A DNA stretch of 64,000 nucleotides. Source: an uncultured Enterobacteriaceae bacterium. Lineage in GTDB: Bacteria > Pseudomonadota > Gammaproteobacteria > Burkholderiales > SG8-39. The notes beneath the pieces were generated by a model, which saw only the letters and a list, made by a program, of their open reading frames with translations, was not told where the DNA came from and did no database searches. The stretch lies in assembly GCA_964576525.1 (NCBI GenBank), contig CAZNVH010000087.1, positions 8,914 through 72,913 of the forward strand. Direction: 5' to 3'. This document shows, piece after piece, positions 42,223-44,245 of the stretch. The first letter of the stretch is position 1; each line of letters starts with the position of its first letter. The position numbers and the translations under genes were made by a program.

Positions 42223-43206
42223 ATGTTGGCGGGTTTTGTTAAGCAGGGGGACGCCGCCCTCCATACGCGCCTCTACCGTTCGCTGTATCGCATCCGACGC
42301 GCCGAAGAGGAAATCGCTCGCGTCTATCCGACGGACAAGATCAAGAGCCCGGTGCACCTGTCGATCGGCCAGGAGGGCGTGGCCGTCGGCGTGTGCGAAG
42401 CGCTCGAGCCTGACGACGTCGTCTTCGGCTCGTACCGCGGCCACGCGATGTATCTCGCGAAGGGCGGCGAGCTGAAACGCATGATCGCGGAGCTCTACGG
42501 CAAGATCGACGGCTGCGCGCGCGGCAAGGGCGGCTCGATGCACCTCGTCGACGTCGCGCGTGGCGTGATGGGGACTTCCGCGGTCGTCGCCACGACGATT
42601 CCGAACGCGGTCGGCTACGCGTACGCGCTCAGGCTGCGCAAGGAGCGCCGCGCCGTGGTTTCCTTCTTCGGCGACGGTGCAACGGAAGAAGGCGTGTTCA
42701 CCGAGTCGCTCAATTTCGCGGCGCTGAAGAAGCTGCCGATCCTCTTCGTCTGCGAGAACAACCGCTACGCCATCCATACCCACCAGCACCGGCGGCAGGC
42801 GAACGACGACATCTGCGGCCGCGTGCGCAGCCACGGCATCGCCGCGCATCGCATCGAGGAAAACGATGTGCTGGCGCTCCATGCGCTGACCAGAAAGCTG
42901 ATTCAAGAAGTTCGTGGCGGGAGCGGTCCGGCGTTCGTCGAGTGCATGACCTACCGCTGGCTCGAGCACGTCGGCCCCGGCGAGGACTTCGCCCTGGGTT
43001 TTCGCGAGCGCGCGGAAGCCGAGACCTGGAAGGAGGGCGATCCGGTGAAGAAAGTCGGCGACACGCTCGAGGCCGCGGCGCGCGAGCAGATCGAGAAGGA
43101 AGTCGAGGCCGAAATCGCCGCCGCATTCGATTTCGCCGAGTCGAGCGCCTTCCCCGGCGAAGCCGAGCTGCATCGCCACGTCTACCGGGACCGCGCCGAT
43201 GGATAG
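42223..43206 (+). CDS. Thiamine-diphosphate-dependent 2-oxoacid dehydrogenase E1 alpha-like subunit
   Basis: Canonical ThDP motif [31 protein letters not shown] (GDG-x26-NN), plus ...[15 protein letters not shown]...YRGHA. Confidence 0.8.
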   Translation: [327 protein letters not shown]

Positions 43207-44245
43207 GGCAAGCTCGTTCGTCGACGCCATCCGCGAGGCAACCGACCAGGAGATGGCGCGCGACCCGCGCGTCGTGCTCTTCGGTCTCGACGTCGACGAC
43301 CCGAAGGCGATCCTCGGCACGACCAAGGGGCTGGCCGAGCGCTACGGGCCCGAGCGCGTGTTCGGAACACCGCTCTCCGAGGATGCGATGACCGGCGCTG
43401 CAGTCGGCATGGCGCTCGCCGGCCTGCGGCCGATCCACGTCCATATCCGCATGGACTTCGTGATGCTCGCCATGAACCAGCTCATCAACATGGCGGCGAA
43501 GACGCACTACATGTTCGGCGGCCAGGAGAGTTGCCCGCTGGTCGTGCGCTCGATCATCGGCAAGAGCTGGGGGCAGGGCGCGCAGCACTCGCAGGGCCTT
43601 TACGCCTTTTTCATGCACGTGCCCGGGCTGAAGGTCGTCGCGCCCTCCACGCCGTACGATGCCAAGGGCTGCCTCGCCGCGGCGGTGCGTGACGAGAATC
43701 CGGTGATGTTTGTCGAGCACCGCATTCTGTACTACCAGAAGGGGCCGGTGCCGGAGGAGAGTTATGAAGTCCTACCCGGCAAGGCGCGCGTCGCCGTCCC
43801 GGGCAAGGACGTGACCATCGTCGGCATCTCCTACATGCAGGTCGAGGCGCTGCGCGCGCAGCGCTACCTGCAGGAAGTCGGCGTGTCTGCCGAGATCATC
43901 GACCCGATCTGGCTCTCGCCGCTCGATGTCGACACCATCGCCGCTTCGGCGGCCCGCACCGGGCGGCTGCTGGTGGTCGACAACGGCTGGAGCACCTGCG
44001 GCGCGAGCGCCGAGATCCTCAGCGCCGTCTACGAGAAGCTGCAGGACGGCCGCCTGCCGCGCGCACGGCGCATGGCGTTCGCGCCGACGCCCTGCCCGAC
44101 GACGCCGAGCCTGGAGAAGCTCTTCTATCCCAACGCCCGCACCATCGCCGCCGCCGCGTACGACCTGGTCAAAGGCTCGCCGCAGGGCTGGCTGCCGCAC
44201 GAGCGTCCCGACCTCAACGACATCGAGTTCAAGGGGCCGTTCTGA
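43199..44245 (+). CDS. 2-oxoacid dehydrogenase E1 beta-like (transketolase pyrimidine-binding/C-terminal) subunit
   Basis: ...RVFGTPLSEDAMTGAAVGMALAGLRPI...QHSQGLYAFFMHVPGLKVVAPSTPYDAKG...; 8-nt overlap with the alpha subunit gene. Confidence 0.8.
   Translation: MDRASSFVDAIREATDQEMARDPRVVLFGLDVDDPKAILGTTKGLAERYGPERVFGTPLSEDAMTGAAVGMALAGLRPIHVHIRMDFVMLAMNQLINMAAKTHYMFGGQESCPLVVRSIIGKSWGQGAQHSQGLYAFFMHVPGLKVVAPSTPYDAKGCLAAAVRDENPVMFVEHRILYYQKGPVPEESYEVLPGKARVAVPGKDVTIVGISYMQVEALRAQRYLQEVGVSAEIIDPIWLSPLDVDTIAASAARTGRLLVVDNGWSTCGASAEILSAVYEKLQDGRLPRARRMAFAPTPCPTTPSLEKLFYPNARTIAAAAYDLVKGSPQGWLPHERPDLNDIEFKGPF

Follow-up and report, generated by a model that had tools for sequence, protein, structure and literature searches.

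A pair of genes encoding the alpha and beta subunits of a thiamine diphosphate (ThDP)-dependent 2-oxoacid dehydrogenase E1 component (E1a and E1b) was analyzed in a 64-kb stretch of DNA from an uncultured Enterobacteriaceae bacterium (assembly GCA_964576525.1, contig CAZNVH010000087.1, positions 8,914 to 72,913), hereafter called the window. The E1 pair is probably a ThDP carboligase that works on its own in a nucleotide-sugar pathway, outside any 2-oxoacid dehydrogenase complex. Because the same gene arrangement recurs in approximately a dozen phyla, the most likely role of the pair is to attach a two-carbon branch to a sugar of seven carbons, which would give an undescribed cell-surface sugar. 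By homolog searching, the window locus is not a one-off, but one variant of a cassette that is spread over these phyla.

E1a (42223..43206, forward strand) and E1b (43199..44245, forward strand) were both found where the initial annotation had placed them, i.e., at 42223-44245. The third-position GC contents (GC3) of 0.85 for E1a and 0.91 for E1b are typical of genuine genes in a window of 67% GC. E1a matched the Pfam E1_dh domain (E=6.4e-61, 296 of 300 profile positions covered). In E1b, the pyrimidine-binding and C-terminal domains that had been described for it were recognized as Transket_pyr (3.9e-37) and Transketolase_C (6.3e-28). The ThDP motif of E1a, GDG-x26-NN, was intact as first reported when aligned with human pyruvate dehydrogenase (PDH) E1a, and a His was aligned with human His263, with 'LEHV' placed opposite the human 'HGHS'. 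The glutamate of TPLSE and the histidine of QHSQ in E1b were aligned with Thermus E1b. The roles of the ThDP-motif, Glu and His residues are familiar from solved E1 structures. With these catalytic residues and with domains at near full profile coverage, the pair was assigned to the heterotetrameric 2-oxoacid dehydrogenase E1 superfamily. The best solved relatives were human PDH E1a (160 bits) for the alpha subunit and Thermus E1b (232 bits) for the beta subunit. E1b was aligned with 1um9_B over residues 6-320 of 348, and its C-terminus is approximately 25 residues longer than solved E1b chains. This extension was considered as an E2-binding block and set aside; the query is also matched to its end by a Streptomyces pair whose cluster has no sugar genes.

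The single-chain architecture of YerE-type enzymes (TPP_enzyme_N, _M, and _C) was not found, i.e., Pfam detected no N or M domain in E1a. A weak TPP_enzyme_C match (6.1e-06) covered the cofactor-binding stretch of E1a, whose main match was E1_dh. The E1a and E1b genes overlap by 8 nt (ATGGATAG), and the E1b stop codon shares 1 nt with the start codon of the next gene (TGATG), a ColD-type dehydratase gene, in agreement with the initial annotation. The pair is translationally coupled, alpha to beta and beta to the ColD-type gene. Among the nearest representatives of clusters formed at 50% identity, many were fused alpha-beta E1 proteins of approximately 660-710 aa, with a beta part 46-55% identical. 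The source names of such representatives were generic automatic annotations.

The partners of a dehydrogenase complex were searched in the window and in the other loci. In Pfam scans that covered every substantial ORF of high GC3, neither a 2-oxoacid_dh domain (E2) nor a lipoamide dehydrogenase (E3) was found in the 64-kb window, so the orphan status first proposed for the pair holds. The sole Biotin_lipoyl domain in the window belongs to the alpha subunit of a methylcrotonyl-CoA carboxylase. By tblastn with the PDH E2 and E3 of Rhizobium (E<=1e-3), no match was found in the window, and homologs were found within 10 kb in 0 of 75 other loci. As a positive control, the Rhizobium PDH operon has E2 and E3 directly downstream of E1b. 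The profile comparison that had been recommended placed the pair below every PDH E1 equivalog cut-off. E1a scored 287.9 against the cut-off of 393.85 in TIGR03182 (PDH E1a equivalog), TIGR03181 gave 202 against 411, and E1b scored 278.6 against 454 in NF008854 and 274.3 against 321 in NF006667. Identity to the true PDH pair of Rhizobium was 37% for alpha and 45% for beta.

A leucine/isovalerate catabolism cluster was found at 5545-16121 of the window. It includes genes for an enoyl-CoA hydratase, HMG-CoA lyase, methylcrotonyl-CoA carboxylase alpha (with the biotinyl domain) and beta, two acyl-CoA dehydrogenases, and one thiolase. No branched-chain 2-oxoacid dehydrogenase genes were found in this cluster, and by position the E1 pair is not its missing partner.

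Among scored candidates, 7,893 E1b relatives were found at E<=1e-30. The best 120 of these were 73-95% identical to the window E1b and came from Betaproteobacteria, Verrucomicrobiota, cyanobacteria, Nitrospirae, Gemmataceae, and Pirellulales. The nearest relatives came from metagenome-assembled genomes of Burkholderiales, and the relatives in other phyla were 60-92% identical. A scan of one genome per species gave 69 loci, and E1b was at least 55% identical in 65 of them. The hosts of these 65 loci were Burkholderiales, Verrucomicrobiota, Binatia, delta/Thermodesulfobacteriota, Caldilineaceae, Dehalococcoidia, KSB1, Armatimonadetes, Saccharibacteria, Gemmataceae (including Gemmata sp. IIL30 and G. 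algarum), and the cyanobacteria Tumidithrix, Dapis, Pseudanabaena, and Oscillatoriaceae.

Synteny was mapped by tblastn, and counts were restricted to loci with enough flanking sequence to be assessed. E1a adjoined E1b in all 59 assessable loci, and a ColD-type gene was located downstream of E1b in 54 of 57. An HddA-like kinase was present in 48 of 51. A B12-binding radical S-adenosylmethionine enzyme (B12-rSAM) of any type was found in 44 of 49 loci, i.e., a type of roughly 500 aa in 36 of 49 and the KedN5-like type of the window in 6 of 49. In the fully flanked subset (28 loci whose flanks reach 8 kb or more on both sides), a short-chain dehydrogenase/reductase (SDR) like GDP-L-fucose synthase (Fcl) was placed upstream of E1a in 25 loci, and a Cj1427-like SDR was found in 19 and an HddC-like transferase in 14. 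The other genes were less frequent in this subset, i.e., gmhB (8), gmhA (7), NUDIX (7), the window-type 4,6-dehydratase (3), and an aldo-keto reductase (AKR) (1). In the window, the ColD-type 3-dehydratase and 4,6-dehydratase genes place the orphan alpha/beta pair among genes that create a nucleoside diphosphate (NDP)-keto-deoxysugar, which is the mark of E1-type sugar C-branching, and this layout is kept in 54 of 57 loci. The initial annotation had proposed ThDP-dependent transfer of an activated two-carbon unit onto a keto-sugar to give a C-branched sugar. This conserved context, i.e., the counts of 59/59 and 54/57 with no E2 or E3, strongly supports such a role.

The standard cassette consists of a Cj1427-like SDR, HddC, in some copies GmhB, GmhA, and NUDIX, then HddA and the Fcl-like SDR, followed by E1a, E1b, the ColD-type gene, and an HpnJ/BchE-like rSAM. 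The variant in the window is less common; some standard parts are replaced there by a 4,6-dehydratase, a KedN5-like rSAM, an AKR, and another Fcl-like SDR. In most copies (e.g., L002:12327-13832; L011-L013 and L018-L023), the rSAM is of approximately 500 aa instead of the 688-aa KedN5-like protein. Its top NCBIfam matches were HpnJ (166 bits) and BchE (146 bits), both far under cut-off. In the copies with this rSAM, a strongly Fcl-like SDR (402 bits) precedes E1a, and the 4,6-dehydratase is absent. These differences suggest that the standard form has a different end product from the window's variant, possibly a carbocyclic one.

A minimal form was found inside a glycan locus on three Azospirillum plasmids. 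It consists of a fused GmhB/HddC-like protein, a Cj1427-like SDR (63% identical), E1a (56%), E1b (62%), and a ColD-type gene (His-His). Two of the Azospirillum loci belong to cultured strains, i.e., A. lipoferum 4B (L074, plasmid AZO_p6, 11524-16372) and A. ramasamyi (L078). Their neighbors are fused HAD/nucleotidyltransferase, glycosyltransferase family 2 (GT2), GT41, sulfotransferase, and WavE-family genes, and no radical SAM gene was listed in L074 and L078.

The E1 pair of the window heads a nucleotide-sugar operon, as had been proposed. This operon has eight genes (42223-50917) whose neighbors abut or overlap with no intergenic gaps, i.e., E1a, E1b, ColD-type dehydratase, 4,6-dehydratase, B12-rSAM, AKR, Fcl-like SDR, and NUDIX. 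A second, divergent operon carries the HddA-like kinase, the HddC-like nucleotidyltransferase, and the Cj1427-like SDR. By sequence reading, an AT-rich spacer of 44 bp (42179..42222) separates the two operons and is presumed to be a shared promoter region.

The ColD-type gene (44245..45417, forward strand) was predicted as a sugar 3-dehydratase dependent on pyridoxal or pyridoxamine phosphate (PLP/PMP). It showed the DegT_DnrJ_EryC1 domain (1e-67), and its closest solved relatives were four entries of E. coli ColD/WbdK (E approximately 1e-50). Its 'YAHHMSTVEGG' stretch has a His at the position of ColD His188, the residue that was changed (to N or K) in 3b8x and 2r0t. In the alignment, 'AHHMST' is opposite 'SHHIAT', and the H188N and H188K crystal variants mark the position. 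Because a His stands at the position of the PLP-binding Lys and the relatives are ColD/WbdK, the gene is assigned as a ColD-type 3-dehydratase and not an aminotransferase, which bears out the earlier reading of this DegT-fold protein.

The genes around the pair suggest a heptose. The kinase (41186..42178, reverse strand) was predicted as an HddA-like GHMP sugar kinase, i.e., heptose 7-phosphate kinase, by the Pfam GHMP_kinases_N and _C domains. Its top NCBIfam match was HddA (136 bits, far under the 600 cut-off) and its top PDB match was 4n3o, 'putative D-glycero-D-manno-heptose 7-phosphate kinase' (118.7 bits). The sugar-1-phosphate nucleotidyltransferase (40529..41182, reverse strand) was predicted to be HddC-like, i.e., GDP-heptose forming, by NCBIfam and PDB matches. 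HddC was its top NCBIfam match (165.6 bits, under the 300 cut-off), and 5xhw and 6jq8, 'putative 6-deoxy-D-mannoheptose pathway protein', were the top PDB matches (118 bits). The SDR at 39579..40511 (reverse strand), an ortholog of the SDR of the conserved cassette (SDR312, Cj1427-like), matched PDB 6vo6_A over residues 2-309 (364 bits, E=5e-108), which we take to be C. jejuni Cj1427, a GDP-heptose C4-dehydrogenase. It is 53% identical to a cyanobacterial copy and 63% to the Azospirillum copy, and its YxxxK motif is present while the dehydratase Glu is absent. The GDP-sugar 4,6-dehydratase (45387..46403, forward strand, start codon uncertain), of GMD or heptose-dehydratase type, was recognized by GDP_Man_Dehyd (2.1e-64). 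It matched 2pk3 (198 bits) and 7us5, 'GDP-D-glycero-D-manno-heptose 4,6-dehydratase' (189 bits), with the motifs CSTSEVYG (TSE) and YAVSK (YxxxK). All four of these genes therefore have heptose-pathway enzymes among their top NCBIfam or PDB matches.

The acceptor given in the initial annotation can be kept as a keto-deoxysugar nucleotide, but a hexose is not favored, since the HddA-, HddC-, Cj1427-, and heptose-4,6-dehydratase-like genes make a heptose more likely. In the data of the Raushel laboratory, Cj1427 and the HS:5 C3-dehydratase make GDP-3-deoxy-4-keto-heptose in vitro, and the heptose 4,6-dehydratase and C3-dehydratase make GDP-3,6-dideoxy-4-keto-heptose (PMC10680097). The conserved partners of the E1 pair are enzymes that generate such a 3-deoxy-4-keto sugar nucleotide, so that a heptose is likelier than a hexose. 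The acceptor is probably a GDP-heptose derivative.

The genes for the early heptose steps are distributed unevenly. In the cyanobacterial locus L002, gmhA scored 203.8 bits (cut-off 209.45) and gmhB 179.6 (cut-off 178), and the two genes adjoin the kinase in cyanobacterial copies. By tblastn, gmhA/gmhB homologs were found in cyanobacteria (L002, L014, L026, L027, L039, and L069), Chloroflexota (L045 and L046), and Saccharibacteria (L057), and none in the cassette copies of Burkholderiales (L005-L009) and Gemmataceae. Cyanobacteria, Chloroflexota, and Saccharibacteria are expected to be without a supply of heptose for the lipopolysaccharide (LPS) core. This is the expected pattern if the hosts with LPS-core heptose borrow those two steps.

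Four further genes complete the operon. The B12-binding radical SAM enzyme (46400..48466, forward strand, 688 aa) showed the Pfam B12-binding and Radical_SAM domains and the cluster motif CPFKCTFC. Its best family was KedN5, a C-methyltransferase (288 bits, under the 700 cut-off), and its C-terminal approximately 250 residues had no family match. The AKR (48467..49426, forward strand, Aldo_ket_red 4.4e-58) has intact D/Y/K/H tetrad motifs and, by its likeness to the AKR Pau7, is a candidate reductase of the acetyl branch. The SDR at 49413..50384 (forward strand) is a GDP-L-fucose-synthase-like epimerase/reductase by NCBIfam (Fcl 172.6 bits, under the 500 cut-off) and PDB (GDP-fucose synthases, approximately 130 bits). 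The last gene of the operon, a NUDIX hydrolase (50363..50917, forward strand, 6.8e-18), may act as a nucleotide-sugar hydrolase.

The whole route, i.e., addition of a two-carbon unit at C4 of a GDP-keto-deoxyheptose, reduction by the AKR, and tailoring by the rSAM and SDR, is considered likely from the homologies above and the order of the genes. GmhA and GmhB would be supplied from elsewhere in the genome. The 4-keto group would be installed by the 4,6-dehydratase and/or the Cj1427-like C4-dehydrogenase, and the 3-OH would be removed by the ColD-type enzyme. The E1 pair would then decarboxylate pyruvate to hydroxyethylidene-ThDP, whose carbanion would attack the C4 carbonyl of GDP-4-keto-3(,6-di)deoxy-heptose to give a 4-C-acetyl tertiary alcohol. 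The acetyl branch may be reduced to 1-hydroxyethyl by the AKR, as by Pau7 in paulomycin (PMC4753412). Further tailoring by the B12-rSAM would probably be C-methylation, and that by the Fcl-like SDR would probably be epimerization or reduction. The neighboring glycosyltransferases and ABC transporter would put the resulting sugar of nine or more carbons into a surface glycan.

Several points weigh against this route. The active-site His residues of canonical E1s for lipoyl transfer are retained, and a distant E2 partner is compatible with the sequence. The heptose assignments stand under NCBIfam cut-offs (136 against 600 for HddA, 166 against 300 for HddC), and the nucleotide or the sugar could differ. 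The window holds both the C4-dehydrogenase (39579-40511) and the 4,6-dehydratase (45387-46403), which are alternative routes to the 4-keto group. This redundancy could mean two products or another role for one of the enzymes. The donor could be another 2-oxoacid than pyruvate, and the role proposed for this E1 clade is drawn from gene context rather than from biochemistry or genetics.

A wider proposal, which we regard as doubtful, is that the E1 pair marks a phylum-spanning pathway to sugars of nine or more carbons from GDP-heptose and pyruvate, whose standard form possibly leads to a caryose-type, cyclopentane-fused sugar. Because the standard form has no 4,6-dehydratase and its rSAM is closer to the cyclase-type HpnJ/BchE than to methyltransferases, ring closure is possible there. 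A 4-C-acetyl-3-deoxy-heptose could close between C7 and the acetyl carbon to give a 4,8-cyclo-3,9-dideoxy-nonose. The constitution of caryose is just what C4 acetylation of a 3-deoxy-heptose and subsequent ring closure from C7 to the acetyl carbon would give. Caryose is a 4,8-cyclo-3,9-dideoxy-nonose, and its biosynthesis was stated as unknown (PMC9092360). The caryose producer, Burkholderia/Trinickia caryophylli, was not among the named E1b matches, which is weak evidence against a direct link, since the scan needs exact 8-residue matches and names are missing for most of its matches. The carbocycle reading is speculative and applies to the standard cassette more than to the window's variant. 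Within the same proposal, the window's variant, with its 4,6-dehydratase, KedN5-like rSAM, and AKR, would lead to a C-methylated 3,6-dideoxy-4-C-(1-hydroxyethyl)-heptose. To our knowledge, such a sugar has not been described. A link to bradyrhizose was also considered and rejected, since the only implicated cluster has a dTDP-glucose 4,6-dehydratase and its paper mentions no ThDP or radical SAM enzyme.

Other explanations of the pair were weighed against the addition of a two-carbon branch. It is rather unlikely that the pair has the same carboligase role with a longer or hydroxylated 2-oxoacid donor, so that the branch would have three or more carbons as with ErwE and MMAR_2332. YerE-class enzymes of LPS pathways do take functionalized 2-oxoacids of C4-C8 (PMC9306805), but KbDH, the sole E1-type enzyme tested in vitro, was limited to pyruvate (PMC12247030). 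Unlike the erwiniose cluster, neither the operon nor the conserved cassette has an aldolase or a gene forming a 2-oxoacid.

There is also a slim chance that no C-C bond to the sugar is made and that the E1 pair decarboxylates a 2-oxoacid to an acetyl or other acyl group, or to an aldehyde, with which the glycan is O- or N-acylated or otherwise decorated. Orphan E1 pairs were found in Streptomyces plasmid clusters without sugar genes, which means that orphan E1s have other uses. In S. griseofuscus pSGRIFU1 (L075, 10986-13032), the pair is beside genes for a condensation-domain protein, an acyl carrier protein, and a ketosynthase. In S. albogriseolus pSALBX2 (L077, 13964-15978), it is among transporter, adenylation-enzyme, tryptophan-synthase-alpha-like, and acyl-CoA dehydrogenase genes. 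These orphan pairs were the nearest annotated outgroups in the plasmid collection, i.e., 50-52% identical to the window in E1a, compared with 37% for true PDH E1a, and 43-47% in E1b. However, the conserved cassette is without an acyl carrier, acyltransferase, or lipoyl protein, and its invariant partners generate a 3-deoxy-4-keto sugar, which is an ideal electrophile. The same two Streptomyces pairs had been tried as stand-ins for AviB1/B2 and were rejected, because clusters without sugar genes are not valid references.

An ordinary catabolic E1 (of acetoin, branched-chain, or pyruvate dehydrogenase) with E2 and E3 elsewhere, placed in a glycan locus by accident, is very improbable, as its canonical domain architecture and catalytic residues and automated names such as 'acetoin:DCPIP oxidoreductase' or 'pyruvate dehydrogenase E1' for its relatives stand against scores under all PDH E1 cut-offs, an identity of 37%/45% to a true PDH pair compared with 60-92% inside the cassette clade across phyla, the conserved sugar-gene synteny, and E2/E3 in 0 of 75 other loci.

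The neighborhood of the two operons is a glycan locus. The host is Gram-negative, and the near upstream flank encodes a TonB-dependent receptor, a GT9 heptosyltransferase, and an MsbA-like ABC exporter. The surroundings also hold rmlBADC, glycosyltransferases with GT4 and Glyco_trans_1_2 domains, a second ABC exporter, an AsnB-like amidotransferase, a methyltransferase, and a UDP-glucose-dehydrogenase-type gene. At 58382-62240 (reverse strand), three tandem overlapping ORFs of 458-493 aa were found, each with a Glyco_trans_1_2 domain. Together, these ORFs resemble an array of paralogous glycosyltransferases next to the UDP-glucose-dehydrogenase-type gene.

If the addition of a two-carbon branch to a GDP-heptose is true, E1-type branching also serves surface glycans, on a heptose scaffold. 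The carriers include Proteobacteria, Planctomycetota, Verrucomicrobiota, cyanobacteria, Chloroflexota, and candidate phyla, groups whose glycan chemistry has hardly been explored. The cassette predicts a new family of sugars with nine or more carbons and would be a lead to an undescribed class of surface sugars. Cultured carriers exist, i.e., Azospirillum lipoferum 4B, Gemmata algarum, and Tumidithrix elongata, and the minimal form of Azospirillum is a tractable system. The toolbox of biocatalysis would gain ketone-accepting ThDP carboligases and B12-radical-SAM enzymes that act on nucleotide sugars. The cassette may also help to trace how carbocyclic LPS sugars arise.

The closest functional parallels are the E1-type pairs of actinomycetes. 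According to a review of 2025 (PMC12247030), E1-type enzymes, called 'alpha-KADH2', are responsible for the acetyl branches of aldgamycin, kosinostatin, kibdelomycin, avilamycin, paulomycin, trioxacarcin, and everninomicin. The review also describes the in vitro coupling of pyruvate with ketones by KbDH-alpha/beta and counts approximately 120 biosynthetic gene clusters with E1-type branching genes. Like the window, AviB1/B2, Pau11/12, the aldgamycin pair, and KbDH-alpha/beta are split E1 pairs without E2 or E3 in a deoxysugar gene set. For these pairs, the coupling of a two-carbon unit of pyruvate with a keto-sugar to an acetyl-bearing tertiary alcohol was proposed (for KbDH, it was shown on model ketones), and the same is proposed here. 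A reductase follows in these pathways as in the window, and that of paulomycin is the AKR Pau7 (PMC4753412, PMC12247030). The comparison was made by description and not by sequence, and the window differs in its Gram-negative host and surface-glycan locus. The sugars of actinomycetes are dTDP-hexoses or -pentoses, whereas that of the window appears GDP-heptose-derived. Here the B12-rSAM is a near-constant partner, and the clade extends over approximately a dozen phyla at 60-92% identity.

In the surface glycans of Gram-negatives, this chemistry was attributed to another enzyme class. A 2025 review assigned C-branched sugars of surface glycans to YerE-type enzymes and E1-type enzymes mainly to antibiotic pathways (PMC12247030). 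The paulomycin paper, in which the AKR Pau7 reduces the acetyl branch, agrees on Gram-negatives and YerE (PMC4753412), and the 'unifying scheme' paper of 2022 described LPS sugars via YerE-type enzymes only (PMC9306805). The literature search found no report of E1-type pairs in glycan pathways of Gram-negatives or of heptoses, with the in-silico survey cited by PMC12247030 outside its scope. YerE, ErwE, and MMAR_2332 (of yersiniose, erwiniose, and caryophyllose) are single-chain ThDP enzymes, and YerE is a ThDP flavoenzyme. The net chemistry and setting of this class are the same as proposed here, i.e., an acyl branch at C4 of an NDP-3,6-dideoxy-4-keto sugar for LPS or lipooligosaccharide, followed by ketoreduction (PMC9306805). 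However, these single chains belong to the decarboxylase superfamily, and the window pair has the unrelated E1 alpha/beta architecture. The acceptor of YerE is a CDP-hexose made via the RfbH/E1-E3 system, whereas the window has a ColD-type dehydratase and a GDP-heptose-type sugar.

The GDP-heptose pathways of C. jejuni resemble the window in another way, as homologs of their kinase, guanylyltransferase, C4-dehydrogenase, 4,6-dehydratase, ColD-like C3-dehydratase, and Fcl-like reductase are all in the window. In C. jejuni, the 4-keto group is merely reduced, and unlike the window there is no ThDP or radical SAM enzyme and no known C-branched heptose. PdhA/B, BkdA1/A2, and AcoA/B share the fold, ThDP motif, and catalytic residues of the window pair, which differs from them in the absence of E2/E3, the scores below cut-off, the C-terminal extension of the beta subunit, and the sugar context. 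The proposed chemistry is of a known kind, and its novelty is in the setting, which combines a GDP-heptose with a surface glycan and a B12-rSAM partner and extends over many phyla.

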